DNA of 64,000 nucleotides from Amoebophrya sp. A120 (GCA_905178155.1 CAJINV010000005.1:3044833-3108832), one strand, 5' to 3'; positions 11,798 through 64,000 are shown, counted from the stretch's first letter. A program made the numbers and translations. The notes: a model not told the origin generated them from the letters alone.

Positions 11798-14700
11798 ATG
11801 AGGCATTTGTATAAAGGTACACTTTCTGAAAGAACGACGAGGACCACCAAGACCAGGCTTCGACAGAACAAAAGGGCAGCATCTTCAAAGCGGCTCATCT
11901 CGTGGCGAGGGCGGCGTGTAACACGGTGTGATTTACTACAGCTTGCGGCTTTTTTAACTACCACCTCGCTCGCGTACGCCAACGATGCTCTGCATTCATC
12001 CCAGCACGGCGTCGTCGTCGCGGGGCAGGAGAAGGAGCAGCGCGAAACAAGAAGACCTTCTACGGAGCAGGCAGCCGCCACTGTATCCTCCTCTATCCTG
12101 AGTAAAAACTGTTCATCCACGAGGGCGACCTCATAGTCATTCGAGATGGTGACCTCCACCTCGCCACACGAACGAAAAAGGTTTCGGTGTGGCGCATGAC
12201 AAGGTTTTGACACTCGCAGTGAAAGAAACTCGTGGTTCTTAGCTAGTAGTGTGGCTCGATGACTCACAAATCGATCAGCTAGATATCGTGATGATAGATA
12301 CTAGCAGGACTAATTCCAAATTTTACTCTGAGAGAAAAAATGCTGTTTTTCAGGCTGATGCGCATGAGAAACTACTGCATGATTGTTCTGGGCACCATGC
12401 AAATCTGCATGACTGCTCTGGGGTGTCGTGGGTCCTCGCGTTTTTGCTCAGGATACTATCCTCCTCCGCCTCGGGAACAGGGAGACCGGAGCGACCGCCA
12501 GGAGATAAAAGAGACGATTTTTATCCGCAGAAAGATCGAAACAGGAGCGGGGCGACGGCACCGCCAGACGACGATATTTCAGGAGGAGAAAACTACGATG
12601 GCCACGAGGACACGAACTCGCATGTTCTGGCCGAAGAAATCGAGTACACTGCGGGCAGTTCGAATACTGGCGAAGAAAACGGGTGGCACGTCCGGACTTT
12701 GCACGAGGAAAAGACGCGACGAGAGGAGGACGAAAACAATAACGAAAATAATCCCACAGATAAACGAGCACGACAACTCCAGTCAACTACGGACAACGAA
12801 GCAGAGAGCACAAGCACATCGTTTTCATCCGCGCATGCGCAGGATGAAAAGAAATCCAAAGGCGAGGTCGTGGACGATTTTTCACCCGAATCCTACTTCA
12901 AGCACCCATGGAATTGGCACAGCGAAAGCAGAAGAGCAGGAAATATTAATGGGGGCGATGCTGAGAGTGTTGATGGCGAGGGGGACTACCACTTCTGGAG
13001 CGACGTCGTCGGGGCGAAAAGTAGGGCAGGATCAGCTTCTAGGAAAGGACAACGCGCTGACGATGAAACAGACACGGGACGATCGCGGACCGCGTCAAGC
13101 TCCTGGAGGTTGCAAGAATCATCAGAACATCAAACGGCAGATAGTAGAACTGCAGGAGCAGAGCCACAGCGAGGCGCTTTTTCCGAACAACGACCGGATC
13201 AGGACCAACACAGCACTCGTCCCAGCGCAGGAGAAGGTTTTCCTGCCAGCGATGTTCTTATTGAGAAGAAATCACCTCCTGCAGAAGTGGTTCTCGCGAA
13301 CACTGGGCACCAGCAAGAACACACCAGGGAAACCTCCACGGAAGACGTTCGAAGTAGTACCAAGACAAGCAAAAATGGCAAGCAACCGCAAGTGTCCGAG
13401 ACCACAGCTACCGGCGAGGGGTCCCGGAAGTGGCGGTACCACTACTGGAAGTGGGACGAGGCGGAGATCGCGCAGATGCGCGACAAAACCCTGAATCCAA
13501 AGCAACAGGAACTGTTCAAAGACCGCCTGACCTGCGATCCCTTGAAGCTACAGCTGGAGGTCGCTGGGTCTTTGGAAGTAGCCCAGGACCTGCAGCGCTC
13601 GAAGATGGATTTACTTTTGGCTAGAACCGCGCGGAATCTCGTTGTCGACTTTTTTGGCAAGTCGCTCAACGGTCCGCCCGAGCGGCTCACGGTCAGATTA
13701 GCGCACAACACCGAGAAACCGCTCGCGAACGTAACGTTAATGGAGGACGAGCGGGTTTTAACGTCACAAGGAGGTGCTGCTGCTAACGGAGGTGCGGATT
13801 ACGAGGACGACGTCGACACAGGCGAAACTAGTACAACTCCAGGGGTGATCCAGCTAGATTTTGAAAGACGCAGGGACACACCTTTGTGGTCGAAGCGGAA
13901 TGATGATAACCAACAGAGGGTAAAAATAAAAACCTCTACAGAGGGGCAAAATTATGCTGCGGATGGAACGAAAAATAAGTTTGAAACATCTTTGAAAAGC
14001 TCCGGATTGCTGGGGGAAAACGAAGGAGAGCCTTCTGAAGAAAGTAGCCCTGCAGGTCGTGGTTCTCTTCTAGGCGTGCAGCTCCCAGCAAACTTTTTGC
14101 AGACTGCGATAGAGACCACGAAAAGTGCAACTTCTGCGCAGTTAGGTCTGGGAACGACATCAGCGGTTGCCAGAATAGAACGGATAGCATCTTCTTCGAA
14201 CAAAAGCGGCCGTGATGCGCAGAGTATCAAGAATTGGAAAAAGAAGAGACGAGAGCAGACGAACAAACAACAATCGCAAACGACAATCACTCCCCAACAA
14301 GATTACAAAGAGATCGCGTTCGACTTGATCTCGCAGACCCTGTTGACGAAAAAAGTGGAATTCCTCATTGCCGCCACGTTTACCATTATCCCCGACATTT
14401 GGTGCCCGGAAAACCGAAAGTGGAGAAGTCTGTTCCAAAAAGCAATTCAGGAAAAACTCTCCTTCAAGGACTGCAAAGTGACGAAAGTGCACGGGGTCCG
14501 GTTGTATTACCCCGGGATGAGCAGTAAGCCCGTGAACGATTTTCTCCCCGACGTTTTCCCGCTTGCCTACCCTGTGAAAGAGCCACCGTTCACGTGTCGA
14601 GACCTTGTGAAGGGCGGGAACCTGTGTGGCGGCCACGGGTTTCTGGGGTACGGGCCCTACCAGTCGAAATTTGGGACGACAACGACGACCACCACAACAA

Positions 14701-17700
14701 TCCACGGGGTGAACATGCTGATTCCCCTGGAGCTGAAAGTCAAGCTCGGCTCCGTCCTGTCGATCACGGATTTGAACATCGACCGGGCCTGGCGGGACAC
14801 CATGGAGCAGGGGTTCCGAAACGCGGCGGTGTTGACGCTGTCGGAGTTCAACGACGGGGTGAATACGACCTTTCCAGACGGATCCGCGAGAATCTCCTTC
14901 CGCGGGTGTTTTTCCTACACCGAGTTCCAGTCCCCAACGCAAGTGTTGTTGCCCTTACCAACGAATGCGTCGATGGGGAATCTGGATGACAACTTGCCGG
15001 TGGAGAGAACTTTCACCGCCATGTTTTTGGTGACAGTTTTGACGAATCCGTTCGAGAAGGAGAACAAGCAGGGAACATCAAAGTATAATAAACCCACTTA
15101 TCTCCCGATAGGCTTGCTTGGGAGCAACGCGACCTTTCAGCAGAATTTCGTTCTGAATGCAACGGAGCTGCTCGCCAGGCCGGAGCTGAATCACACGAAC
15201 TTCCTCGTGAACGCGTCCCGGTTCTACAACAGCACGCTGATCGCGGACAAATACGGGGCCTTTGTGGGCGACTTTGAGCCGATCGAAATCGTCGACGCGA
15301 AACTGGATGTGAAGCAATCCCAAACGAGTGTTACTACTGTGCAGCAGACGGGGGCGATCGTCCCGTCGAACCTGTTCTTCTTCCTAGTCGTGCCGTATTC
15401 CATGCAAGAGGCCGACTTGAACAACGACGATGGGTGGAAGCTAGCCACCCGGACCATGTTTGCGAAGGCCGTGAACGTGCAGCTGCAGAAGGTGAAATAC
15501 AACGAAACGGTGTTTGTGACCAATGACGAGAGGTTCATCAGTAACGAATTTACCAGTTGGGGAGTGTACAACGTGCTGGACGATACACTGGGGAATGTGT
15601 TCGGTTTGGACGGAAATAAAGGGACAAATCAGAACCTGACCACAACGGAAAGCGACTTCAACAATTTAGACGACTACGAGTCGAGACTGACGATGAAGTT
15701 CAAACTACCCTGAGGAAAAACGTTCCCACCCCAGAGTTGTGATGCAGATTTGCAATGACAAGGACATTTGTGATGCGCATACCCACGGTAGACATTTTCA
15801 ATCGTGTTTTGCAATTTGTGATGCTATGAACAGGATAAGCAGATGGATCTGTGATGCAGCTGCACTTGCTGACGTGCACTACACTACGGAGGGCAACTTG
15901 TCATGCGTGACTCCCCGAAACACAATCACCCGAAATTTTGGGTTGATCAACTCACCCGAAACACAATGCCACCCTGCAGCAGCACAGTCTGTTTATGTCA
16001 TGCGTGACTCCCAAAAGTCCTAGGTTTGTGTTGCAAAATCCCCATCTTGACTCTGGTGGGGGGACGTTTTTACTCAGGATACAAACAGCCGCAGCCGAAC
16101 CCGATGGAGAGAATCTTGGAAGAAACCAACAACACGCTCGCCATGTATAAAAATACACCGGGAGGTGGAGGTTTCAGCAGTTCAACGTCCGGTGACCAAG
16201 AAGATGAAAACAAAACCGGGGAGCTGGTGCGCGCCGTGCGGATTCACTTCACGGTGACGGATTGCGCCGAAACAGACGTCTGGCGGGTGTCGCAGGCAGA
16301 CCTGGCCTGGCAGTCCTTTATCCCAGAGAAAAAAGCTGGCGGGCATATTTGTAATGCAAAAATAAATACACAAAAAAAATTGTCATGGGTGGCCCCATAG
16401 CACATACAGATTTTTTGTGTATTTATTTTTGCATTACAAATATGCCCTGCCAGCTTTTTTCTGTGTGATATCCTTCGACTACTACGAGGAGACTTTGCGG
16501 AAGGAGATCGACCTGATGGATTTTTCGAGCGCCAAACTGGAATTCGCAACCAAGCCGGTGGTTTTGCGAGCGGTGTTTCGCCACGAGGCGGTTTCCGCCA
16601 ACACGTACGACCGGGTGCACGTACCGATCGGGTTTTACCTCGTGCTGTTACTGCCACAGTCTGTCACGGAACAAGACTTGAGTGTGGACACGAGATTCAA
16701 GAAGGGGCTCGAAAACGGATTCGCGAGCGCGCTGGGGATCTTGGCCCAGCAGGTCATGTTCGAGCGCTGCGAGTTCCGGGATCTCTTTTCCAAAGTGTAC
16801 GAGGTGGCGGAGGTGGACATGATTGAAAGACAGCGGACCGCGTTTCTCCAGCGAGAGGCGGAGAAAATGGAAAGAGATTTGTCGCGGCAACCAGGTGCCT
16901 ATCAAATGCAAATATGTCTGGGCCTGGAAGGTTGCACCTTGTGATGCTGTCCCTGCATCCAGAAAGATCTGTATTGCATGACTAGCTAGAGCAGCCCAGT
17001 TTCCGCGACACGGAGAGGGCCTTTCTACATGCGGATTAGGCATAAGGAAGCCCCCTAAAAATCTGCGGTGCTAGTAGGTCATGCATCACAGGCGACATGG
17101 ATCATACAAAATGTGCATGACAATAAACTTGGGAATCTGCCAGACCCAGACATATTTGCGTTTGATAGTGCCATCAGGTCCTTGTCCGCGGTGCCGGATC
17201 CGTTGCAGATCAAAGCGCTGCGAGTGGTTCTGATGGTGGACACGAGCGACATGTTGTTGATGCGCAAGCTCTTGCAGCTCCGATCCGCGGATGCAGATGT
17301 GAGCATTTTCAACCGCATTCTGCAGGAAACCAGGTTCGTGTTTGGCCACGAGTTCCGGGCGGTGACGCCCTCCCCCATGCAGCGACTGCTGGTCCTCCAA
17401 GCCGCGCCGGAGTCCTCCTGGTGGGACAAGCGGTCCGCTATCAAAAGGAAAAATCCCCCCTCCCCATATCGAAAAGCAAAAGGAAACTTGTGATGCTGGA
17501 TTTGCGTACACAAATGTCTTGCTGGAGAGCACTGAAGGCCCCTACCAAGTGTGAATAGCGAGGCTTTGGCTTACGGACTTAGCATGAAAAACATCCGCGC
17601 TGTAGGCCGAACAGCATGGGAAACCGCCTGCACAATGCGGCGGAGCCTGCGGAGTTGCCTTCTTGCAAGACAGACGCGATTTGTTGCCGCAAATCAGCGT

Positions 17701-20700
17701 CACAAATTTCCAAAAATATACCTTTTCAGTATGGGGAGGGGGGATTTTTCCTTGCAATATCCGCCTGGCAGCTGCTCGAACCCGGCCCGATCTCCGGACC
17801 GTCCGGCCGCAGCTTCCTGCTCAATTACGACGCGATGGAGCTTTTGCCAATCAATCCCGACCTGCTCGCCCGTAACCACACGCTCCGGGACATCATCTTG
17901 TCCGATCCAGACTATCTGCAAGCGAAGATCGCGGGACTCCGCGGGGCGTTGCGACTCGGCCCGGACACGGAGATCACGCTGCACAAAACCTTTTTCCTAG
18001 GCTATCGTATGTAAAAACGTCCCCACACCATACTTGTAATGCAGATCTGCATGCTGAAAATGTTTCTCATGCGGAGCCCCATGAGAAGCCTTTTCCATTC
18101 AAGTTTTGAAATTTGTCATGCTCCAATCAGCATGATATACTAGATCTGTGATGCTGCTAAGCTAACTGAAACAGCACTACACTACGAGTCGAAATTTGTC
18201 ATGCAAAACAGCCATGACATGTGGATTTGTCTAGCCGATTCCCCATCTTGACCATGGGGTCGGGACTTTTTTACATGGGATATCGGCCAGAAAATGTTCT
18301 GGAGCATGAACCTGACCGCGAGCAAGCCCGCGGATCCGCGAATGGTCTACAAGTTTGTCGTGAAACCCTTCCGGGACCCGGCGATGGCCATGCAGGAATT
18401 AGCCACAGGCAACACGGTCGGGACCGGTTTGGGCGCGACCGATCCGAGCGCGGGGATGGGGCGGGAGCAGAAAGCCGGGTTTCAGTTCCAAGTCACCGGC
18501 GCTGCTGGTGCTGCTCAGGGGTTAGCGTTGCTCTCCACCGAGGAAAGGTTCGACCCCGTAAGTGGGAGACCCAGGTACCCGGAGTTCGAGTGGCAGGGTG
18601 AGAATGAGCGAGATGTGGATCTTCAATATGGAGTCAACAACAACAATAAAAATTGGAGAAATAGGAACGGGCTAGTTTTGATGTCTGATGTGGACAAGTA
18701 CCAGCACAGGACGGATGTTGCCGGAGCGGAGAACAATCATATGCTGCTCGTGGAGGACGAACACTTTTCCCAACAGGCGGTAGAGTACGAGCGAAAAGTG
18801 AAAGTTGACCCCAAAACCGGCGAGGAGACCGAGGAGTTGATCCCGAAACTGGTAGATTCCCCGATGAAGCCGAAGCCGTTAGCTGCCCTGATGTTGTTGC
18901 AGGAAGAGGAAATAAGGGGAACAACTCTTGGAGATGATGTTCTTGAAAGAGCCGGCGGTGCTGGTAGAACAACAACCTCTGAAGATGATTTCATCTACAA
19001 CGAGGGAAGTGGTTCAGAATTGTTCCCCGATCATAGGGCGGACGAGTCAGGAAAAATGATCCCACACCTGCCGGAACTGAACCTGATACAAACGCAGTCG
19101 CTGTCTTTGAATAGCCAGGGGAGAACAAGAAGTACAACCAAGACCGCTGCAAGGACGACACAGTACCTTGTGAAGAACAAAACGCAGTGCTGTTTGTACA
19201 CGACCCGGTCGTTCTTCACGATCAAACTACTCGACCCCGCCTTGCCCCCGTTCCAAGGCATTCTGGTGGACACCTTCTATCAAATGTAAAAATGTCTGGG
19301 TCTGGAAGAATGGAAGGCTTGTCATGCTTGTCTGGCATGACCCATGATGCTTGCAATGCATGACCCAGCATCACAGATTTTTGGAAAGCTTCCTGATGCC
19401 ATTTCCGCATGACAAATGCCCTCCTCGCGTAGCACCAATGTGGCTCCTCTTGCTGGTCATGCAATACAGATCTTTTTAGAGTCCAAAGGTAGCATCACAA
19501 GTTCCAACTTCCCAGACCCAGACATTTTTACATTTGATACCTTCCCGAAAATCGCCAGTCTGACGAGCTTCGCGGAAATGGCGAGCAACTGGACGAGCCC
19601 GTACCTGGACAGCAGCGTCCGGATGGTGCGCGTGACCGCCGCGCAGCCGTTGCTCCGTATGCCGCTGATCGTCACCCTGGGGCTGCTCCTGGACGAGAAT
19701 TTGGCGATGATTGCGAGGGAGGACGACGCGAACGCAGATAAAGGGTACCAACTTGGGAAGGCGCGGTCTGTCGCGACGGCGCTGGGGATCAGCAGCTGGC
19801 GGGTGGAGTACGTGAATTCCATCTTTGGCCAAGCGACGCTGGGGGACGGGGAGCAGTCGTACTTGCACGAGTTCAAAGGGAAGGAACTGAAATTAGAAAA
19901 GAACAAAACCGACGGCACGGTCAAGTACGTGCGCCGACCGGAACACTTCAACGTGACTTCCGGCCCCCACTACGCGGGGCAGCGGCTCTCGCCCCACGGG
20001 CCGGAGTCGAGGGTGACGAAGTCCACCGTGCACGAGTTCCGGAAGGAGGCCGGGGGCTTCGGCCCGCACATGGCGCTGCTGCAGAAGGACGAAATGAGGA
20101 AGATTTACGTGCTAGATCCGCGCGTGGACAACAAACGCCCCCTTTTGATGGACACGAGGCAGGTCTACTCCCGGTTTGCCGTGCCCGCGTCCGCGCTGTC
20201 TTCCATCTCCGAGCCGGAGCTGCGCGAGCGGTTGTTGGACGCTTTTCAGTTGGAAATGCAGAAACCGGAGTACAGCTACCAGTCCTTGATCGGCGCCCGG
20301 CCGCGGATTTTGGAGATTTTGAGAATCGCGGTTTTTATCAAGGGCGACGATCGGCCCTTCACGTTGCCAGAATTCCAGCAGCTGGCTTTGAACACGACCA
20401 CCACCTCGACCACGACCAGTTCAGTTGTCGGCGCGAACTTGACAATCACAATCGACAACCACTGCGAAAGGAACCTGACGATCTGGCGCAGTCACAACTC
20501 CGGCCGGGAGGAATTTCTGAACTTGGCGCCCGGGACCGTGATCGCGGGGGTTGGCTGTGTGACGGACACCGGGCGAAACCCAACGGCTGACGGCTTTGAC
20601 AGCAGGAATAAAAACGATAACCTCTTCAGCCTAGACACCTACTCCGGGTCGACGGAATGTGAGTTACTCTACATCTCCGCCCCGAAACAGGACCCAACGT

Positions 20701-53700: not shown

Positions 53701-56700
53701 CCGGAGGTGGTGCCCTTCGGCCGGGAGGAGTACAGGATCCAGGAAAAACCGATGAAATTGGACCTGCCGAAAATTGCGGTCGAGAAGCAAGTGCTGCCCA
53801 AGTTCTGCAGGGCAGCGAACGGTATTTACGTATGCTGAAAACAAATAGGATCATTATTTTTTTATGCTGAAAACAAATAGGATCATCAATGACTGTGTCC
53901 TCTAGTGAAGATAAAAAGTTCTATTACAATTGCTTTTAGCGAACACTACTTTTACCAAAGCAGACTCGTTCATTTCCCCCCGGTGCGAATCCGCCCCAAA
54001 CTGCGTCGAGGAGTCATGTGATTGCGATGAGGGGTACCGCGTCCGGAAGTGCCGGAAGTGCGTGCAGCCCCTCGGGGTCACCACCTTGCCCCACGAGGAT
54101 TTCGTCGCTGGCACCTGCGCCACCTGCCGCATCCCCGATCCTTCCGAGTGCGCGAAGTACAGCACGGATTACTGCGTCTACGTCGACGAAATGCCGAAGC
54201 TGACGCAGCAGCGGGCGATATCATTTGTAAAAACATTCTGCTAGACAAGTCAGGGAGTCAAGATGGGAAATCTGCTAGACAAATCAGCCAGCTTTGGCCG
54301 TTTGGCATGACAAGTTTGTCCTCGTAGTCTCATCCTATTTAGGCAGTTCAGCAGCATCACAGACCTAGCACATCATGCTGATCATAGCATCACAAATCCC
54401 AAAACATGACTAGAAAACGCCTCTCATGGCGCTCCGCATGGCAAACTTTTTTGGCATGCAGATCGGCAGGACAACTCTGGGATGGGGAGGTTTTTACTCA
54501 GAATAACCGAACCAGATGTTGGTGGACTTCCTGGGCGGTTTCTCCCAGCCCAGTACGCCGCAGTTCCGGTGTATGGGAGTGTCAGGATCGAAATCGACAA
54601 AGTCGAAATTATCTGTCATGCATAAAATCCTACACAGAAAGCGACTCTATTGCAGAGGATGCAAGGAAGGCGGATTGTAGTCGTGGTAGGGGCCAAGTGT
54701 TGGGCTGCTGACTAGCATGACAGAATGCAGCTCTTTTGCCCTAAACCGCATGACAGATTCGGTTCCAGGACGGGGAAAATTTGTCATGCGCCGACTAAAA
54801 ACTGTGGGTCTAATTGGCAACGAATTTGCGCATCACAAATTTTTCGATTTTGTCAATTTAGATTCTCTCACTTCCATACGGTGCACGCAGTGCGCGAACT
54901 TGGCGTTTACCTTGAAAAACGGGAAGTGCGAGTACGATTTGGAGAGGAAAACCGAGTTGACGGTGGGGAAGCTGGTATCTGGCGCGTGCAAATTGGATCC
55001 GAATTGCGCCGTGTTCCGCCCGAAGTGTGACGATGATGACTTCGAGTGGTGGCCGTGCAAGAGGTGCTCTCCGGAGTTCCCGGTTTTGAAAGAGGATGGA
55101 AGATGCAGGAAGGCAGGTAACAAAGGTCAACCTAGTTGTCCTCGTGTGGTTTTTTCGTTCTACTTTTGATGTTCTCCAAATGCGCTTTTATACATGGCAG
55201 AAACGAGAGGGATTCTACCCCTGATTTTTCCACCGTGTGACAAACTAAACGTCTCAGGTGTCCTCTACGAAGAGAAGTCTAAGTTTGATATTGCGGACAG
55301 CGGTTTCTACCCGCCTTCCTTCGTGGATTTTGGGAACGGCACGATCCTGCACACCTGCCAGCAACTCCCGCACAAAATGTCGATTTCCGGGGAGCTTCCC
55401 AATGTCTTGGACCCCTGGCCACCGACGAAGAAAACTAGTACAACGTCTTCCACTGCTGCAGCCGGTAAACAGAACAAGACAAACCTTCTGTTCGAGAATC
55501 ATGAAAGCGACAAGAACAATTTCGCAGCCAGCACGGAGTTGGAAGTCGACCAGGAGACGGGGCAGCTGCAAATCATGCTGGAGCAAACCCCGACTATTCA
55601 ACAGCAGAAGGAGCCGCCCCCGAAGTGCGGTCCCTTTTTGAAAACCTTGAATTTCACCGACATCCTGCATGCCCCCTTCGGCGTGGTGAAAATTTCTTTC
55701 CGGTTCTGGACGCTCTTCTGGGACCGCCCGAGCTTCATCTACGTGAAAATCAACGGGGAAAACGTGATCGCGCGGGAGAGCGGGAGGATTTGCGAGTTGT
55801 TTGACAACATGCACAGCTTCTACGACAGTTTGGGGAACGGATTTGAGTACTTGCTGGAAGACGCGCCGCAGGGGACCCTGGTGTGTTTCACCAATTTTAC
55901 CATCGGAGCGTTTTATCACTTAGAAGACGGGTACGAGAAGTTCAATTTCACGGACGTTATTGATTACAAGTACTTGCCGGCGAAAATACGACCAGGGGGA
56001 AAATCAAATGTGGCCAGTGCCGCGGGTGCTGGTTCTCAGGGAGGAAGCAACACTAGTACAACCGCGGGGGCAACTCCTGGAGGTGCTGCGGGTGCAGCTG
56101 GTGCAGCTGCTGCGAACGGGACGGCCTCCGCAACAACAGCTGCCACACCTGGGGCTCAAACAGCGTTGTTCGCTGCGGATTCCGCCTTGTTGGCCGCAAA
56201 AGGAAAAACAAAGGCAGCACAAGAAAAGACAAAAGCAAAACCCACACCACTGCAACAGGCGAAGGAAATCATGAAGGAGATGAAATTACCGCTATCCTCT
56301 GAGGAGAAGGCGAAAAAACAACTGAACTACCGCGCTCTGGCAGCGAAAGCGCTCGGGCTGCAACTCGAAGATACGATGGGGATGAACAAAGGGAAAAGTA
56401 ACAAAATATCGCTCACACAACTTAACGGTCGTTTGACGAAGCAACCGGGTGGAGCAGCCGCGCAGCTGAACACCAGTAATACAACCAGTAACGCAACTGA
56501 CAACAACGACACCAATCCGCTAAATCGCGACCTCGTGCAACTCGACCCAAGTTCCGGAAACGTAAAGATCGAGATCGGCGCGCAGAACCACACACTGCTG
56601 ATCGCTTTTGACCAGTTGAAGGTCACATTCGACCTGGATGAGCAGTTCGGTATTGAAGAAGACAACAAATACGACGCGAAAGAGCGAAAAGCAGCCGAGC

Positions 56701-59700
56701 CCCTGTTCCTGCCCGCACCGGAAAGATTTTACCCGGCTAGCTGGAACGCGACGCCGAAAGAATTCCGAGGGCCGTGCGCGCAGTCGCCCCATTGCGTGTC
56801 CATGACCCGGAACTGCGAGCCGATTTTGAACCTCTTCGAGTGCAATCAGTGCCTCGAGCCGGATTTCGGAATCGTGTTGGAAGCGCCGACGAACAAGACC
56901 GAGGGGCAGTGTGGTCTCTGCTTGCCTTATCCGAACCGGGATGAGTGCGACATTCAATCCAACAAGTTTTGCTTCATGGAGTTGAAATCAAAAGAAATAC
57001 CGGTGGATGAAAACTACAAGCAGATCGTTGACGACAGTACGTCCAGTCAAGTTCCCGTCAAGGGGGAAATCAAGGGAAACAACTTTTTCTCCTTTTCCGA
57101 CTACTTTCCGCAGACCATCCACGCCCTTTCCCAGTTCACGGGGATCGGGGACAACGACCAAAAATCAGTCCTCGTTTTCGAGAAAAAACCGTACTTCCAA
57201 TGCACGAAGTGCAAACTCGGGTTCAACCGAACGGCAGAAGGGAAGTGCGTGGCGGAGTCACCAGTGAAAAGAGCCCTCGTCATATTGTGAGGAAAAATCC
57301 CCCCTCCCCATATCGAAGCGGTATGATTCCAAAAAATTGTGTTGCTGATTTGAGCCCACAAATCACGTCTGTCTTGCAAGAGGACAAGTGCAGAGGCTTC
57401 CGCGCCATTATGGAAGCGATTTGGCATGCTGTTGGGCCTAGGGGACGCCCGTTTGTAATGCTAAACAACTAGACCTAGGCTGAGGATCTGGCTGCGATGC
57501 CTTACCGCAAGACAGCGCGCATTTGTGTACGGAAATTCCGCATCACAGCTTCCCGTTTTGATATGGGGAAGGGGGATTTTTCATTTTGATACGCCACCGT
57601 CGGGAAAATTGCCGGCGGGTTCTGTTCGCGCGACCCCGACTGCGAATTTTTCGGGAAAGAATGTAAAAGCGAGGACATCCAGTGGCCTTGCGAGATCTGT
57701 GGCTGTGAGAAACCGGTTTTCAACGAGAAGACAAAGCTTTGTGACAGGGATGGGGAACTCTATCGGGAGAGTAGAGAGGAAATTTTAGACGGGAAGGGGT
57801 GGAGCAGTCAATACAGCCTCGTCTTAACCAAACAGCAAGCGTCGATGGAAGAGAAATCCGACGGGGATTACTGGCCGGAAGTCCTGGAAGCGCTAAACAT
57901 TCCGCAAATTTCCAAAGAGCTCCCCGATTGGCCGCGGTTGGACGGTTTGGATTTGATTTTTCACGAGTCGTTCTGGGAGAAGGCCACGAAATTGAAGCAA
58001 AAAATTGACAAGTCGCTCGGCGGTGTGAACTTAGACGACCAGGTGGTGTTACACACCTGCGACGACATGAGCCGGCATTTGACCGGGCCGCTGTTGAACG
58101 CGACGGCGGAAGAGGAGGATGATGATGAAAACGCGGCCTTTTTGCAATTACAGGAGAGCAGGACAAGCACCAGAGATAGTTCTACAGGAAGTAAGGATGA
58201 GGAGAGCACTAAAGAATTGTTGTCACAGAAGATGAAAAAAATCCCCGCACCAACCACCGTGACCGCCAACCACGTCGGGCTGTCTCTCAAGGTCGATTTG
58301 AAACACGCAAATCTCCAAGACGCCGAGGCCGAAGCGAGCGGGTTGCTGCGGGAGAAGGAGACAACACAACTGCGGAAAAATAGAAAATATGATCCCAAAG
58401 CCGACCCGTCCCTGAACAACAACAACACCGGGGTCACACAGCCGGACAAAACGCGGCAGAGTCTCCAGGACCGCATCTCTCTCCACGAGGCGCTCGCGTA
58501 CAAGCCGCAGTGCGGGCCGGTCTCGAAGAATTTCAACTTCACGAAAAAAATGCGAGTGAACGCCCAGGTCACCGTCTCCCTCCGCTTCTGGGCGCTGTTC
58601 TGGGACAGGCCGTATCAAAATGAAAAATCCCCTCTCCCCATATCGAAAAGGAAATCTGTCATGCTGGATTTGCGTACACAAATCAGATTTGTCTTGCAGT
58701 AGAAGACTGCTCGCAGATCGCAAGCTCAGACGGGGGCCTTTTGGTGTAGGCACCTAGCATGGTAGACGGCTGCCCTGTAGTCCTTACAGCGTTACAAGTC
58801 GCCTGCTTAGTGTGGCAGAGAGCCTGTATGTGCCTCCTAGCAAGACAGACAGGATCTGTGGCCGCGAATCTGCATCACAAATTTTCAGAAGAGACGGCTT
58901 CAATATGGGGAGAGGGGATTTTTCCTTTTGATAGACCGGGTGAAGCGTTTATCAAGTTCAACAACGAGACCGTCGCGACCGACACGACCAACGGGTTTGC
59001 CTGCGGCCGGGGGCAGAAGCACATCTCGTCCTGGCAGCCGTACGTCGGCCGCTCGCCCGGGACGGGGATTTGTCTGATCACCATGCGTATCAACTGCAAA
59101 TATGTCTGGGTCTGGAAGAATCATGCTGCTTTTGCATGACACAGAAGGTCTGGCATGGACGCTCCAGCATCACAGGTTTCGAGAAGCGTTCGCAATGCCG
59201 AATCTGCATGACAAATCCCTGATTTTGGTGACAGAAAGTGGGCAACTTTTGCTGCCTATGCATGAGAGATTTTTCTGCGTTCTGAAATGCGCATCACAAG
59301 TTTCAACCTTCCAGACCCAGACATTATTGCAATCCATAATGCGGGCGAAAGTGAAGAAGCAAAATCATCAAGATTTCAGAATCACCGTCGGCTCGAAAAA
59401 CGTCTCCCAGCCGTTTGCGTTCGACGACGTGCGGATCGTGTACGACGCAGCGGACCCGGGAGAAGTGAACCCGCCCGAGTGCGCGCAATTCAACGACAGC
59501 AATTGGGCGGTCAACTTCACGCCGGCGGCGAACGGGTTCTACGGCCAAAAAGGATTGAACTACACGGAAACCGCCGACTACAAGATTACCGGGGAGGATG
59601 CAGACTTGCAGACCACTGTGGACGAAGAGTTTGACGAGTTTAAATCGCTGGAGAATTGGCTTCGGACGCCGGAGGGGCGAGCCTACCTGGGCACGACCGC

Positions 59701-62700
59701 GGACGGACTGGCGATCGCGCGGGCAATCAAAGCGAAGTACCACATTCTCGAGTCCCTCGCCTCCGCTGTAGAATCGGACATGATCAGCAACGAGACGGCG
59801 ATGAAAATCGAGCAAAAGTATCTAGAAGAGTTCTCCCTCCTGAAAGACCTACCGGAGGTGGTGAAAAAACTCGAGGAAAAAGCGAAGGAGGAAGACCTGA
59901 TCGCGCCCAAAATGTCGAAGGAGACTTACGAAGTGAACGTGAACCAAGAAGAAAACAAAATTCCGAACATTCCGGTATCGAACGTGCCGTTTCTGATCCG
60001 GAAAATCGTGCGAACTTTGCGAAAGATGAAAAACAAGGCAACGAATAGACACGTGGAAGACAACATCGTCGACGAAGCATTGGATACCTTGTACAACTCG
60101 GACGGTGGGATAGCAGCAGATGAAACCTCTTCAGATGCTGCCTACGCAGACGAAGAGAGTTCATCTTCCACCTCTTCTTTCGAAGGAACGGACGAATACG
60201 GGATGAACTATCCTTCTGTCGTCCGAGAAGCAAAACTACTGCCCGAGACGAGCATGACTGAACAACAGTTCGCTCTGACCGCGGAAAAGCGGCTGCAACT
60301 GGAAAACGAGCTAGCCCACCAGGAGGAACTGCGAAAGCAGGAATGGTTCTGGCCCTTCACTAGTAGTTCGAACAGTGCAGATGAAATCCCCCCGGACGAG
60401 ATCTTCACCAACGAAACAGTCACCTTCGACATGCCGCTCGGCCCCAAGACCACCCCGCCCTTTATCTCCACCGTCGCTTGGACGGACAGGCTGCCGGGGT
60501 ATCTCCCACCGGGGGGGGAGATCGTCGGGTACGAACCGGATGGCACCTGGTATCTGGATTTCCTCGGCGCGAAAAAGCACTGCGAGGAGTTGGAGTACTG
60601 TGGGGGGGTGATGTCGCATGGGCTCGGGTGGTATTGGACGTTAAAAACGGCGGAGCACCTAGCAAAGGACAGCCGGCCGATCGGCGGGAGTAAATCGCCC
60701 TTCTTCACCTATTTGATCCCGGGCCGGATCGTGCAGAACGGCGGTTACCAGCAGTGCCCCGAGGAGGAGCTCCGGAACTGCGTCTTGTCGAGCTGTCTGA
60801 AAAAGCAGTACAGCAACTGGCTCTACGACAACTTGTTTTTCTTCTTCCCTTCCGCCACGGAGCTCGCTGCCGCCGGCTACATCCCGCACCACACGAACGT
60901 GATCAAATCCATACCGTCTTTACCGGGTCGGCCGAATTTGACGATGCCGGGATTTACTATGCCGAATGTTAGCATGAGCATGCCGGGCATGCCCGGGTTT
61001 CCGGCAATGCCGAATGTCTCCCTGCCCGGCATGCCACTTCCCTCTGCCTCTTCGATGAATTTCACGAGTTACTTCCCGACGATCCGGTTACCCAACGGAA
61101 CCTACTGGAAGTCGAAGGTGCCAATCCCCGCGATCAGAATCAACAGCAGTTACTGGCTCAACGCGTACAACGCTTTTCCGAATGCAAGGCTAGGGAATGG
61201 GAGCAGCAATGGAAGTAATACTTCTGCATCATCATCAGCCTGGAGCTACTTGAGAGATTTTTTCGCGCAGAACAATCTGTCCGCCAAGGAGGTCGAGGAG
61301 CAAATGGGCATTGATATCAACAACCTGGCGAACAATGGGTCCGAAGCAGTAGCGGAAAATTTATCCTCCTTTGTTCTCCCCCCGCCGACGAATGATTCTG
61401 ATTTTTACAGCAATGAAAGTGCCGCTTTATTTCCTTTTGCGAATAACAACACCACTTTCACCGATTTTTACCCGCACCAGAATCAGGAGATTTTGGTGGA
61501 AGATTCTGCCACCGACGCCGACCTCATCCCGCCCCCGACCACGCAAAACTACTGTCGGCTGTGCGAACCGCACTACGGGCTGCTGCGGGACCCGGAGCAG
61601 CTCGCTCTGGTGGGACGCTGCGTCCCCTGCAACCCGGCGAACCCAGGGTGCAAAGTCCCGTCCGACCGCGAGTGCGTAACTGGGGTGAACAAAACGTTAC
61701 TCCAGTTAACGATGGTGAAGTACCAGTACAAGTGTTTGCAGTGCGAGTCTGGCTACCAGCTAGACCAGGACACGCAGCAGTGCAGGGTCTCCACCTCCTC
61801 GGAACTGATTATTTCCGATCCGGTTGGGAAGACGGGTCAGCAGCCGGTCGCCCATGATCTATGGCTGACCGGGTCAGAAGGAATCGCCCCGGCCGTCACG
61901 TTCATCGTGTGCCAAAAGGACCCCAACTGCCAACTGTTCGCAGACAACTGCAACAAGACGCGGCTGTGGCCGTGTTTGCAGTGCGGTCCGTCCGCGCCGG
62001 TGATGGACAACAAGCTGTGCCGGAAGAAAAAAAGCCTCCTCGACGAACGAGGGACGGAGTTAGTGGGTATCGGCTGGTCGAGCAACAGCACGGTCTACTC
62101 CGGGACCGCGAATTTGCGGACGTGTAAAAAAGTGGAGTATTACAACTACAAAAATTACAGCATTTCCAACTTCGAGGAAAGTATAATACCCAGCGGAGAT
62201 CTGATGTCGAATGCAAATTTCTCCATGGGCGGCGGTAACAGCAGCAGCAACGCAAGCAAGAAGTCCTCAACAAAAGACAGCGTCGCTGCTGTCACTCTTC
62301 CGCAGTTAGCGAGAGAATTGTTCCACCTCCGCCAGGACGACCCATCGGTGCCTAATTTGCTAAACCCGCAACCTGGCCTGGACATGCTCGGGAAACGGTG
62401 CGACGCGATCAAGAAAACCATGAACTTGGAGGAGCTGGGGCTGCACCGTTCCGGCTACATCAAAATCTCGGTCGAAGTGTGGACCCTGTTCTGGTCCCCG
62501 CACGACAGTCTGCAGGGCACGGCCTCGGTGAAAAGGGAAGAGCGGGTGTGGCTGAAGGCTAACGGGGTGGAGCTCGACGGGGTCACCATCAACGACGGCA
62601 ACTGCCGAAGGACGGACGTGGGGTTCTTAGGCACGACGGGGGAAAATTTCGATAGCGACGGAGACGATTTTTCGTCCTACGCTTCCGCGCTCAAGGACGC

Positions 62701-64000
62701 AACTGGAAGTAGTGGTGACAAAAATGATACTTCTGCCTCGCTGCAACCAGATCCCGTCACTCTGATCCAGCAATTCCCGGCGACGGCTTCCGCGGCGTAC
62801 CGCATGCGTCGCTCGAGACCGCTGGCCACCTTTGCCGGCTGGCCCGCGGAGTCGGCGTATTACTTGGACGACAAAAAACATGGCGGACCGGTTTGCGTGG
62901 GCATCCTTACCGGGTACGCTTTTTACAAGTATCCGAACAACATGGAGGTCGAGATCGGTGTAAGTCAGCCGGACCGGCTCAATTTCGCGCTGGACCAGTT
63001 CCACGTCGACTATGACGCCGATCAGCAAGACTTGTGGAAGAACGCCAGCCTCGGCATTCCCGAAGCGATCGTCCGTGTGGCCGAACTCGAGGCGAAGGAG
63101 CAGGGCGTGGCGGTGCAGGAGGTTCTGCAGGGAATCGATGGACTGACTTCAAATGAAACCAACACTACGAACGAGACGAATGAAACGGGATCAACTTCTC
63201 TGTTCAACGGAACAACTGACGCAGCCGCGACTTTGTTCCCGCTTCCCACGCTCGCGTTTTCGACCTACACCCAGCTGTGGAGCGCTTTTTTCGACATGTT
63301 CTACCGAAAAAACGCGACGGGGAACTTGACAGTGGACGGGAAAATTGTGGTCGCGAATAAAAGCACCGGCAACGTGGCCATCACGGATTGGAATTACACT
63401 TGGAACGAGTCATCTAGCACTCGTCGTACTGGCGATGGTTATTCCTACAACTCAAATACAGCACCAGGAATGACGAAGGGTAACAACTCTGCTCTGAACA
63501 CGACGTCCGGTGTGCCTGTCAACCAATTTTCCCCGAATTTCGGCTACAACCCCTTCGAGCAGCAATTACTCCTGCTCCAAAAAGCGCAGCGCGCCGCGTC
63601 GCAGGTTCTCTCGACGTCGCATGAGGATCAGCAGGAACATTCAAAGGTGTATTCGGATAATTCCCTTTCGAGGACGTCAACGTCAACCACGGCGGGAAGA
63701 AAAGCAAAAGACCAGAACGTCAGAGAAAACAGAAAATTGCAAAAGAAAAAAGAAAATGGAAATCTGCACCCAGTTATCGGCGCTTTGACCTCCGCACAGC
63801 AGGCGCTGGATAAACTGACGCGGCAAAGGGAGGACACCATCAAGCACAGGCGGGCACTAGACGCTGGCGACGACTATGGTGAAGACGGGAAGAAGAGTTC
63901 CGCGGCGGAAAATCGTGGCAGCGGCAGCACGGAAATAGAAAAATGGCTGAAGGACGGTGAAGACCTCGACCAAGAGAAAAAATCCGTCGTACCCACGATC
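11798..64000 (+). CDS. Gene 2 (3'-partial, ~51 exons): giant (>=13,097 aa) repeat-rich, probably secreted/surface protein or polyprotein; function unknown
   Basis: Removing 46 TIR elements plus one TSD each (12,367 nt) and 4 GT-AG introns (545 nt) from 11798-64000 leaves 39,291 nt = 13,097 codons in one frame. The last exon (59339-64000) runs off the window, so it is absent from the ORF track. N-terminal hydrophobic stretch LLQLAAFLTTTSLAYA. The start codon is uncertain. Confidence 0.82.
12094..12455. mobile_element. Introner/MITE #11, divergent family C-like
   Basis: Short TIR TATCCTGAGTAAAAAC...GTTTTTGCTCAGGATA; atypical 11-bp flanking repeat GTATCCTCCTC/CTATCCTCCTC; junction TVSSS|ASGT. 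Confidence 0.8.
15706..16081. mobile_element. Introner/MITE #12, family C (reverse orientation, with nested insert)
   Basis: TACCCTGAGGAAAAACG...CGTTTTTACTCAGGATA; TSD CAAAC; junction KFK|QPQP. Confidence 0.93.
16319..16470. mobile_element. Introner/MITE #13, family D
   Basis: Long fold-back TIR; TSD TCCTT; junction WQSF|DYYE. Confidence 0.95.
16900..17167. mobile_element. Introner/MITE #14, family A
   Basis: Family A TIRs; TSD GTGCC; junction QPGA|IRSL. Confidence 0.95.
17439..17759. mobile_element. Introner/MITE #15, family B
   Basis: Family B TIRs; TSD TCCGC; junction KRSA|WQLL. Confidence 0.95.
18003..18282. mobile_element. Introner/MITE #16, family C
   Basis: Family C TIRs; TSD TAGGC/TCGGC; junction FFLG|QKMF. 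Confidence 0.92.
19278..19539. mobile_element. Introner/MITE #17, family A
   Basis: Family A TIRs; TSD CCTTC; junction VDTF|PKIA. Confidence 0.95.
20933..21194. mobile_element. Introner/MITE #18, family A
   Basis: Family A TIRs; TSD CAGTT; junction PEQF|YLQQ. Confidence 0.95.
21253..21461. mobile_element. Introner/MITE #19, family E
   Basis: TIR TATCACACAAGAAAACTGTTTCACTGTGA...TCACAGTGAAGCAGTTTTTTCTTGCGATA; TSD GATTC/GATCC; junction CEQI|LASW. Confidence 0.93.
21517..21827. mobile_element. Introner/MITE #20, family F
   Basis: TIR TATGGAAGCGTCAGGTTTGAAATCGACAAAGTTGAAA...TTTCAACTTTGACGATTTCGATCCTGCCACTCCCATA; TSD CCTTT; junction SGSF|QAHN. Confidence 0.93.
22871..23150. mobile_element. Introner/MITE #21, family C
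   Basis: Family C TIRs; TSD AGAAA/AGAAG; junction AAKK|PQPV. Confidence 0.92.
23222..23474. mobile_element. Introner/MITE #22, family A
   Basis: Family A TIRs; TSD TCACC; junction VDVT|ADGK. Confidence 0.95.
23698..23948. mobile_element. Introner/MITE #23, family A
   Basis: Family A TIRs; TSD TGGCA; junction TTWH|TYML. Confidence 0.95.
24072..24329. mobile_element. Introner/MITE #24, family A
   Basis: Family A TIRs; TSD CGGAC; junction VDTD|FPPC. Confidence 0.95.
24866..25117. mobile_element. Introner/MITE #25, family A
   Basis: Family A TIRs; TSD ATTTG; junction DIDL|SDIY. Confidence 0.95.
25900..26150. mobile_element. Introner/MITE #26, family A
   Basis: Family A TIRs; TSD TGACC; junction QVMT|MNFA. 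Confidence 0.95.
26993..27253. mobile_element. Introner/MITE #27, family A
   Basis: Family A TIRs; TSD GGATC; junction STRI|DGDL. Confidence 0.95.
27314..27575. mobile_element. Introner/MITE #28, family A
   Basis: Family A TIRs; TSD CGCGA; junction NLTA|KRCR. Confidence 0.95.
29217..29467. mobile_element. Introner/MITE #29, family A
   Basis: Family A TIRs (right end CATG); TSD CAACA; junction LRQH|GAAG. Confidence 0.95.
30832..31268. mobile_element. Introner/MITE #30, family C (with nested insert)
   Basis: TATGCTGTGTAAAAAC...GTTTTTACACAGGATA; TSD ACGGT; junction NSTV|VMTL. Confidence 0.93.
31599..31748. mobile_element. Introner/MITE #31, family G
   Basis: TIR TATCAAATGCAAAAGCATCGCACT...AGTACGATACTTTTGCAATGCATA; TSD CGATT; junction VEAI|YLEA. 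Confidence 0.92.
32322..32531. mobile_element. Introner/MITE #32, family H
   Basis: TIR TATCGCAAGAAAAAAACTATGTGAGTGTAAGT...ACTTACACTTACACAGTTCTTTTCCTGGATA; TSD CGATA; junction DLPD|TYTW. Confidence 0.92.
34213..34425. mobile_element. Introner/MITE #33, family H (opposite orientation to #32)
   Basis: Family H TIRs; TSD CGAAT; junction VTAN|PPGQ. Confidence 0.92.
35183..35440. mobile_element. Introner/MITE #34, family J (single copy here)
   Basis: TIR TATAACCCGCTCAGGTGTTACAATCTCAA...TTGAGATTGTAACACCTGAGCAGGTTATA; TSD CACGC; junction SMHA|NLED. Confidence 0.93.
35495..35757. mobile_element. Introner/MITE #35, family A
   Basis: Family A TIRs; TSD CGGAG; junction SEAE|AVVE. Confidence 0.95.
36790..37077. 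mobile_element. Introner/MITE #36, family C
   Basis: Family C TIRs; TSD TGCGG/CGCGG; junction NCGA|DLAQ. Confidence 0.92.
37438..37699. mobile_element. Introner/MITE #37, family A
   Basis: Family A TIRs; TSD AACGA; junction LKNE|RIDM. Confidence 0.95.
38019..38224. mobile_element. Introner/MITE #38, family E
   Basis: Family E TIRs; TSD CTACA; junction RSLY|ILGF. Confidence 0.94.
39418..39670. mobile_element. Introner/MITE #39, family A
   Basis: Family A TIRs; degenerate 6-bp flank TCGAGC/CCGCGC; frame is restored by a 3n-compatible cut, e.g. removing 6 flank nt (VIE|LALV). Confidence 0.9.
41075..41386. mobile_element. Introner/MITE #40, family B
   Basis: Family B TIRs (right end GATG); TSD CCGAG; junction DLGR|ALRD. 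Confidence 0.95.
42091..42305. mobile_element. Introner/MITE #41, family E
   Basis: Family E TIRs; TSD TTCCA; junction FLSS|NSDY. Confidence 0.94.
42563..42824. mobile_element. Introner/MITE #42, family A
   Basis: Family A TIRs; TSD AGTGC/AGTGT; junction PEV(R/W)DPY. Confidence 0.93.
42900..43151. mobile_element. Introner/MITE #43, family A
   Basis: Family A TIRs; TSD TTAGT/TCAGT; junction KA(L/S)V|EAVR. Confidence 0.93.
44696..44948. mobile_element. Introner/MITE #44, family A
   Basis: Family A TIRs; TSD ATGGC/ATGGT; junction QM(A/V)TIK. Confidence 0.93.
46811..47124. mobile_element. Introner/MITE #45, family F
   Basis: Family F TIRs; TSD CTGGA; junction NTLE|DVCL. Confidence 0.94.
47957..48105. 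mobile_element. Introner/MITE #46, family G
   Basis: TIR TATCCTGTGCAAAAGTATCGTACTCGTAT...ATACGAGTACGATACTTTTGCACTTCATA; TSD CCGGA; junction CEYR|IELT. Confidence 0.94.
48415..48661. mobile_element. Introner/MITE #47, family A (reverse-complement relative of #3/#39)
   Basis: Family A TIRs; TSD TCCTG; junction AFSC|QTVQ. Confidence 0.95.
49310..49463. mobile_element. Introner/MITE #48, family G
   Basis: Family G TIRs; TSD CCGGC; junction SVAG|KGSA. Confidence 0.94.
50940..51191. mobile_element. Introner/MITE #49, family A
   Basis: Family A TIRs; TSD AGCGC; junction LVQA|RNLY. Confidence 0.95.
51221..51541. mobile_element. Introner/MITE #50, family B
   Basis: Family B TIRs; TSD GCCGG; junction NVRP|DQVN. 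Confidence 0.95.
52071..52415 (+). repeat. Two coding ACN (poly-Thr) tracts, 52071-52112 and 52368-52415
   Basis: (ACC/ACG/ACA)n in the gene 2 frame; mucin-like linker. Confidence 0.8.
52146..52319 (+). other. Probable canonical GT-AG intron
   Basis: AGA|GTTTTG...TGCTAG|AAG removes the in-frame TGA at 52272; junction FLGR|KVTQ. Confidence 0.55.
52524..52668 (+). other. Canonical GT-AG intron
   Basis: GCG|GTATTG...CCTCAG|ACC; junction TIKA|TCDE in frame. Confidence 0.8.
52903..53164. mobile_element. Introner/MITE #51, family A
   Basis: Family A TIRs (left end CATC); TSD ACTTC; junction MQDF|TGKT. Confidence 0.94.
53822..53963 (+). other. Canonical GT-AG intron
   Basis: AACG|GTATTT...AAGCAG|ACTCG; junction AAN(D)SFI in frame. 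Confidence 0.7.
53831..53886. repeat. 24-bp near-tandem duplication inside a canonical intron
   Basis: TATGCTGAAAACAAATAGGATCAT at 53831 and 53863. Confidence 0.85.
54219..54505. mobile_element. Introner/MITE #52, family C (degenerate)
   Basis: TATCATTTGTAAAAAC...GTTTTTACTCAGAATA; TSD GGCGA/ACCGA; junction QQRA|NQML. Confidence 0.88.
54572..54878. mobile_element. Introner/MITE #53, family F
   Basis: Family F TIRs; TSD CGGTG; junction QFRC|TQCA. Confidence 0.94.
55117..55200 (+). other. Canonical GT-AG intron
   Basis: GCAG|GTAACA...TGGCAG|AAACG; junction RKA(E)TRG in frame. Confidence 0.7.
57283..57591. mobile_element. Introner/MITE #54, family B
   Basis: Family B TIRs; TSD CGTCA/CGCCA; junction AL(V/A)|TVGK. 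Confidence 0.93.
58613..58933. mobile_element. Introner/MITE #55, family B
   Basis: Family B TIRs; TSD GGCCG/GACCG; junction FWDRP|GEAF matches the uninterrupted paralogous motif FWDRPSFIY near 55715. Confidence 0.95.
59088..59338. mobile_element. Introner/MITE #56, family A (reverse-complement relative of #8/#24/#29)
   Basis: Family A TIRs; TSD ATGCG; junction ITMR|AKVK. Confidence 0.95.

Follow-up and report, generated by a model that had tools for sequence, protein, structure and literature searches.

Farhat et al. (2021, PMC7789003) describe the introners of Amoebophrya sp. A120 as elements that start with TAT, followed by seven variable bases and an A run, and that have short direct repeats, non-canonical ends and splice sites that vary relative to the hairpin. 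Tens of introners in a single gene have already been stated in a later paper (Gozashti et al. 2025, PMC12130899). Giant genes are known from Prymnesium, where, according to the PKZILLA report, the annotation was broken into fragments, the proteins reach up to 45,212 aa and poly(A) reads extend only ~10 kb from the 3′ end (10.1101/2024.01.29.577497). The A120 annotation itself already lists a 44,016-bp exon; with this exon and the PKZILLA precedent for fragmentation, giant size is not the surprise of the locus described here. Its new content is the giant protein itself, the lack of known domains and a candidate maturation motif. The PKZILLA products are enzymes and titin is a muscle protein; all have domains that can be recognised, and their genes have GT-AG introns, whereas the chain discussed here has about a third of 45,212 aa, is likely secreted and is without a Pfam domain.

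Several families of secreted alveolate proteins offer further comparisons. MIC4 and AMA1 are PAN/apple-domain adhesins of apicomplexan micronemes. Ciliate secretory-granule proproteins, far smaller than a chain of ~13,700 aa, offer another parallel. They are reportedly matured by the aspartyl cathepsin CTH3 (PMC4142616); the idea proposed for our locus is similar, with extrusome cargo of an alveolate synthesised in precursor form and then processed by an aspartyl protease. Finally, plasmepsin X substrates carry sites such as NFLQ, SFIQ, SLVQ and a PFFFIQ peptide (PMC10113190, PMC7146544).

The window analysed here is a stretch of 64,000 nucleotides. From the ATG at 11798 to the window end it encodes 13,104 codons with 0 stops once introns are removed (39,312 nt spliced), while the longest single frame without splicing has 1,641 stop-free codons. 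Our gene model has 51 exons and removes 46 introners and four further introns or gaps. A sequence-only reading had proposed one continuous frame, masked by introns and still open at the window end; this was confirmed by assembling the spliced coding sequence in silico, with its two suggested junction peptides (GSFQAHNCK and FWDRPGEAFIK) both present and its order of protein regions in agreement with ours. Its length of at least 13,097 aa was close to the computed count, and the difference from 13,104 probably arose because the boundaries of the gap at 52.1-52.36 kb were set differently. Since the public protein P0001 adds 615 aa past the window, the whole chain comes to ~13,719 aa and 1.52 MDa. 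The parasite origin assumed in that reading is borne out by P0002, a protein of the locus that carries the source name Amoebophrya sp. A120. That reading did not recognise the introners as a published class, nor did it mention the [LF]LQ motifs or the public model that already contains the C-terminus. All mapped features are listed in Table 1.

Table 1. Mapped features of the giant reading frame (positions counted from the first letter of the window).
Feature	Position	Strand	Remarks
Spliced reading frame, 51 exons	11798..64000	+	13,104 codons; P0001 extends 615 aa past window
Weak hydrophobic segment, aa 46-62, after basic N-terminus	11933..11983	+	candidate recessed signal peptide
First introner	12094..12455	.	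5-nt duplicate poor (2/5); +5 or +11 removal both keep frame
[LF]LQ motifs in linkers	14094..58147	+	e.g. 14094, 16843, 20076, 25621, 29080, 29660, 33076, 58139
Six beta-alpha-beta modules	15333..49051	+	starts 15333, 16600, 19644, 22298, 32033, 48863
27 introners, all element+5	15706..38224	.	starts 15706, 16319, 16900, 17439, 18003, 19278, 20933, 21253, 21517, 22871, 23222, 23698, 24072, 24866, 25900, 26993, 27314, 29217, 30832, 31599, 32322, 34213, 35183, 35495, 36790, 37438, 38019; basis: frame
Two-Cys beta repeat, first clusters	25183..31987	+	aa ~3072-4792; 12/18 curated units
~65-aa helical-pattern repeats, 12 copies	34896..48139	+	aa 5618-8914
Introner breaking the +5 rule (weak link 1)	39418..39670	.	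253, 256 or 259 nt removal required
12 introners, all element+5	41075..59338	.	starts 41075, 42091, 42563, 42900, 44696, 46811, 48415, 49310, 50940, 51221, 52903, 59088; basis: frame
Introner, joint in X1	47957..48105	.	154 nt skipped = 149+5
Two-Cys beta repeat, second cluster	48698..53385	+	6/18 units, both sides of Thr-flanked gap
Thr-flanked non-coding-like gap (weak link 2)	52111..52364	+	two in-frame stops; modelled intron 52239-52340, putative boundaries
GT-AG intron	52524..52668	+	frame-consistent; predicted
Three modules: Cys-rich segment + all-beta 'FWALFWD' domain	53716..63058	+	53716-55997, 56670-59488, 61544-63058
GT-AG intron	53822..53963	+	frame-consistent; predicted
Introner, joint in X1	54219..54505	.	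292 = 287+5; left duplicate kept at positions 1-2
Introner, joint in X1	54572..54878	.	312 = 307+5
GT-AG intron	55117..55257	+	joint in X1 and X2; used in public model P0002
Introner, joint in X1 and X2	57283..57591	.	314 = 309+5
Introner, joint in X1 and X2	58613..58933	.	326 = 321+5
Best-conserved segment vs A25 orthologue (43%)	60365..60778	+	PAN/apple-like lead

The sequence was scanned for inverted ends with flanking duplicates and then searched with the termini so obtained; this yielded 46 elements between 12094 and 59338, all bounded by TAT...ATA inverted repeats. They measure 149-437 nt and account for 24% of the region, and 42 of them can be grouped into six families with 3-21 members each. 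Their ends show the published pattern of an initial TAT, then seven variable bases and then an A run, from which a few deviate (CAT, TAC, or ATG at the right end). The 5-nt flanking duplicate is perfect in 34/46 and matches at 4/5 positions in 9 more (43/46 with at least 4/5), and codon phases are spread evenly (16, 15 and 15). When the boundaries were slid, none of the 46 introners gave GT-AG or GC-AG, and GA-AG or AT-AC was possible in three. Inverted ends, direct repeat, non-canonical boundaries and repeated families are thus shared with the published A120 introners, and nothing sets the 46 apart; as they show every A120 introner feature that was tested, the introners themselves are already known. 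The longest element (30832-31268, 437 nt) repeats its own subterminal motif, and behind this second copy lies additional internal sequence that probably represents an end that was duplicated or nested. The short elements 7253-7423 and 16319-16470 contain a second, inner inverted repeat and are nearly full palindromes.

Removing each element together with one 5-nt duplicate carries the frame through 27 consecutive junctions before the first exception, and this fixed rule fits 45/46 introners. At 24 of the 46 junctions there is one open frame on each side, and the rule fits 23 of these (chance ~2.5e-10). The first introner is also flanked by an 11-nt duplicate (10/11 match, window 12083-12466). 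Ten elements have mismatched duplicates (18003-58933), and for half of them the choice of copy is synonymous. Two non-synonymous cases concern position 5, with T in the right copy and C in the left, which would fit a left copy that is wholly exonic and an intron that starts at TAT.

Exact joints were found for 5/18 introners and for one of the four other introns in contigs of the likely-RNA runs X1 and X2. Both runs come from one sample, and their RNA status is a tool's guess, none being recorded as RNA; the search took in the 18 downstream ones of the 46 introners. Raw-read run X7, with only 4 reads on the locus, was left out. All five introner joints skip the element length plus 5 nt, and where the duplicates differ (54219, 57283 and 58613) the bases retained at positions 1-3 are those of the left copy. 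Introners 57283 and 58613 belong to the same family but lie in opposite orientations, and each of them is spliced out; this would speak for a machinery that recognises the paired ends rather than a signal with a direction. Splicing of a single family in either orientation was not mentioned in the PMC7789003 main text according to a word search, although the supplementary Figs S19-S25 may cover it. An empty-site DNA allele could mimic the element joints, although it does not explain the GT-AG joint in the contigs. In addition, one 379-nt X1 contig runs from 54037 over joints upstream of the P0001 start, and introner 59088 is also spliced out in P0001. The contig depth of X1 and X2 drops toward the 5′ end, the pattern that a poly(A) bias would produce on a single long mRNA; this was not counted as evidence, since contig depth cannot rank gene parts. 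The GT-AG intron at 53822 contains a ~25-nt direct tandem repeat near its 5′ end (53828-53890).

Two joints of the model are weak, and no read joint was found in the X1 and X2 contigs at either of them. At element 39418 the standard 258-nt removal leads to a stop ~35 codons downstream, and the full model removes one extra base. With 5/5 observed and 45/46 predicted introner joints following the element+5 rule, which shifts the frame here, the element could be spliced in the same way; the product would then be truncated near aa 6,725, and the gene would be broken or consist of the first half only. We regard this outcome as highly improbable, because the 7,000 downstream codons are stop-free, transcribed, spliced and conserved in A25, and because published splice sites are themselves variable relative to the hairpin (PMC7789003, main text). 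The locus provides two clean tests of introner splicing. One is the family whose members are removed in either orientation; the other is element 39418, for which fixed-distance and duplicate-guided rules predict different products.

The second weak joint, at 52.1-52.36 kb, lies between two Thr-codon tracts, and the sequence scores as non-coding from ~52120. An intron in this gap is GT-AG only if 119 nt of non-coding-scoring sequence stay exonic, and the GT-AG model therefore probably retains intron sequence. Four GT-AG introns had been reported by the sequence-only reading: three have ordinary G/GT...CAG ends, and the first (52239-52340) is GT-AG only by keeping these 119 non-coding-like nt. 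The gap bases were confirmed by a contig of the DNA-like run X5, and the likely-RNA contigs have no cover at 52.0-52.9 kb (focused placement on 51549-54218). The two in-frame stops, the lack of convincing splice sites and of a read joint, and the separate public models on either side would fit at least two tandem genes, divided at the gap (stop at 52272, ~9,960 aa, then ~3,700 aa) or by an internal spliced leader; that genes of the genus Amoebophrya sit in co-oriented blocks, according to the main text of PMC7789003, was counted on the same side. However, the downstream part would have no start codon or signal segment: there is no in-frame downstream Met after the stops, and no second signal-like segment was seen in frame downstream of the gap. 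The frame is identical on both sides, the Thr tracts are duplicated, as an intron would have it, and the two-Cys beta repeat is present before and after the gap. The public models P0001 and P0008 begin at Met codons within open exons, which counts for a single chain. Tandem genes are accordingly unlikely, and all exons, the two weak joints included, probably belong to one intact mRNA.

The public annotation holds this chain in fragments. P0001 is identical letter for letter to aa 10862-13104 of the model (2,243 codons), across three element joints; P0002 covers aa 10452-10755 and P0008/P0009 cover aa 9243-9537. Together, the three separate models cover 3,457 of ~13,719 aa, about a quarter. The protein searches were limited by length or region (1,181-3,370, 953-2,720 and 269-858 aa, and a profile search), and the fragment count is therefore a minimum: only P0001 matched in the first length window and only P0008 in the last, with no match within 953-2,720 aa. 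The expected splitting of the gene is thus real, while the dozens of false genes foreseen earlier compare with three found by these length-limited searches. Four of the seven profile hits (P0003, P0005, P0006 and P0007) were discarded because BLASTP did not match them to the chain. The A25 fragment P0004 is colinear with the chain over aa 11140-12319, with 33-43% in blocks. One search of a metagenome scan gave no match, and metagenome locus L001 was dropped, with 47 residues, E 3e-4 and no matching plus-strand ORF among those listed. Near 55260-55450, P0002 lacks three residues that are encoded by the DNA, probably owing to a spurious 9-nt intron call. No description of a giant Amoebophrya protein was found in the literature searched, which covered few subscription papers. 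More generally, sparse-RNA annotation recovers only fragments of very long genes, and the rule of element plus duplicate works from DNA alone.

The protein begins with the hydrophobic N-terminal segment that had been noted before; it is present but weak, the best 13-residue mean hydropathy being 1.46 (aa 46-58). In this candidate signal segment the first 30 nt score as non-coding, and the AG directly 5′ of ATG 11798 is a candidate spliced-leader acceptor. A long low-complexity region follows. Six of seven beta-alpha-beta candidates beat at least 199/200 shuffles, and these six modules are what had been called SEA-like; the modules are real, and no SEA domain was named by Pfam or fold searches. 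The structure model of such a module has a pLDDT of 65, with only the first beta-alpha-beta confident and a best fold match of Z 4.2. Each of the 18 curated two-Cys units scores above at least 97/100 shuffles, a result that is partly circular as the units were selected by their Cys pattern. The Cys-ladder beta-helix is known from proteins of the CAP/cofactor C type; for the repeats described earlier as beta-helix-like, the two-Cys beta repeat itself was upheld and the beta-helix label was not confirmed. The helical-pattern repeats all (12/12) beat 200 shuffles.

The proposed Cys-rich triple modules near the C-terminus were found as three modules. The model of their FWALFWD domain has a pLDDT of 49 and matches generic beta-sandwiches only (best Z 4.3). 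A kinship of this domain with the two-Cys beta repeat was considered and rejected, since no resemblance was seen on comparison. The Pfam cut-off was passed by 0/45 exons scanned (6 short exons were left out) and by 0/3 proteins, the PDB sequence searches gave nothing usable, and the leads of the Atlas search with P0002 were all under 0.9. For the best-conserved segment, PAN features reached 0.85-0.87 and TM 0.40-0.44, both under the Atlas bars, and a Pfam search with E values up to 1 listed no PAN match. A PAN/apple-like domain, in one copy, is only a lead for this A25-conserved segment. Compared with the PAN/apple adhesins, one conserved segment resembles PAN clusters by features and predicted structure with sub-bar scores; in contrast to them, the chain would have a single copy in 13,700 aa, no Pfam hit and no transmembrane tail.

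N-x-S/T sequons, reported as numerous by the sequence-only reading, are in real excess: we counted 177 against 90 expected, and none of 200 local shuffles reached this number (maximum 113). The excess is uneven and most marked in aa 3301-6690 and beyond aa 9975; it is weak in aa 1-3300 (32 vs 23.2; 24/500 shuffles reach it) and in aa 6691-9890 (26 vs 17.8; 12/500). Downstream of the Thr-flanked gap, the counts are 12 vs 4.3 and 60 vs 26.5 expected, and such an excess in a stretch that lacks a signal-like segment of its own counts for a single chain. The overall excess points to secretion, and together with the Cys modules it supports the earlier suggestion of an extracellular or secretory-organelle protein, in the form of a secretory-pathway protein. 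No membrane anchor, GPI-like anchor or hydrophobic tail was seen in the ~13,719-aa chain.

The linkers between modules contain a short motif, [LF]LQ, that occurs 23 times with the P0001 tail (22 in the window frame) against 7.9 expected, an enrichment of ~3-fold. After [LF]L, Q is the most enriched residue (22/154, p 5e-6 before correcting for 20 residues). The surroundings of the motif are poor in order-promoting residues (p 0.0004), whereas those of seven control motif sets are not; several LLQ copies sit in ordered helical regions. The site at 58139 is conserved in A25: its linker cannot otherwise be aligned, yet TALLQ of A25 stands opposite AAFLQ. No enrichment was seen for the wider consensus, with [FLM][IV]Q at 10 vs 9.8 and [FLM][LIV]E at 21 vs 27.4. 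As [LF]LQ matches plasmepsin X cut sites, the chain is, by this analogy, likely a protease-matured precursor, with only the LQ form enriched. The plasmepsin X/IX substrates of Plasmodium (Rh5, Rh1, Rh2, Ripr and SUB1) resemble the proposed precursor as secreted invasion-type precursors with x-hydrophobic-hydrophobic-Q/E sites; they differ in having one or two sites each, against ~15 in linkers and enrichment of LQ only here. No sequence homology to these substrates was found. In the literature searched, with few subscription papers covered, we found no description of an LLQ/FLQ motif in dinoflagellates and no paper on a plasmepsin IX/X-type protease in Amoebophrya or dinoflagellates.

We favour, with a probability of about 0.4, the reading that one gene encodes a secreted, glycosylated precursor of ~13,700 aa that is cut at linker [LF]LQ sites into adhesive or structural subunits of a discharge organelle. 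The same frame, joint and sequon evidence would fit equally well a secreted giant glycoprotein that stays largely uncut, as a scaffold or coat fibre, with [LF]LQ serving as sorting or assembly signals or being compositional. The long repeat arrays would suit a rod, and the enrichment of LQ alone, without the wider plasmepsin consensus, agrees with this; against it, the motif lies in disordered linkers and keeps its position in A25, as expected of accessible cut sites, and no membrane or GPI-like anchor was seen. We regard an uncut fibre as somewhat less probable than a precursor that is cut.

In the favoured precursor reading, a message of ~41 kb would be made and its transposon-derived introns cut out. 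Each introner would leave with one flanking duplicate, in either orientation (observed for 5, predicted for 41), and because it leaves with one duplicate the pre-insertion frame is restored. All exons, the two weak joints included, would in a second step probably be joined in one mRNA. The product would very probably enter the ER via the N-terminal hydrophobic segment and be N-glycosylated and disulfide-bonded, with no membrane anchor. A plasmepsin-X-like aspartyl maturase could then, at roughly even odds, cut ~10-15 linker sites to give pieces of 100-1,900 aa. The weakest step is the last, in which trichocysts, or electron-dense bodies that form late in infection, would store the pieces for use in attaching to the host or entering it. 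Amoebophrya forms its trichocysts in the sporont stage, and a role in attachment is assumed for them (PMC9478091).

A bolder proposal, which we consider doubtful, is that syndinian attachment and invasion cargo is made as a single 1.5-MDa polyprotein, which a plasmepsin-X-like protease would process at twelve or more [LF]LQ sites, and that this maturation code, known from malaria invasion proteins, predates the apicomplexan-dinoflagellate split. If true, such a polyprotein with a shared maturation code would open a route to a hidden class of secreted precursors in syndinian genomes. The locus offers a candidate organelle cargo without known domain and a testable proteolysis motif common to malaria invasion proteins.

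An upstream co-oriented gene (window 279-10498, with its start before the window) also contains introners, two-Cys beta motifs and a beta-alpha-beta-like module. A link between this gene and the giant frame was rejected, as the upstream gene terminates with the stop codon at 10496-10498 and the next 1.3 kb score as non-coding. The pieces of the upstream gene (1,946 aa) hold 7 [LF]LQ against 0.66 expected. Finally, in the giant chain the third-codon-position G+C of the low-complexity linkers is below that of the modules, which may be the mark of younger or faster-evolving sequence.
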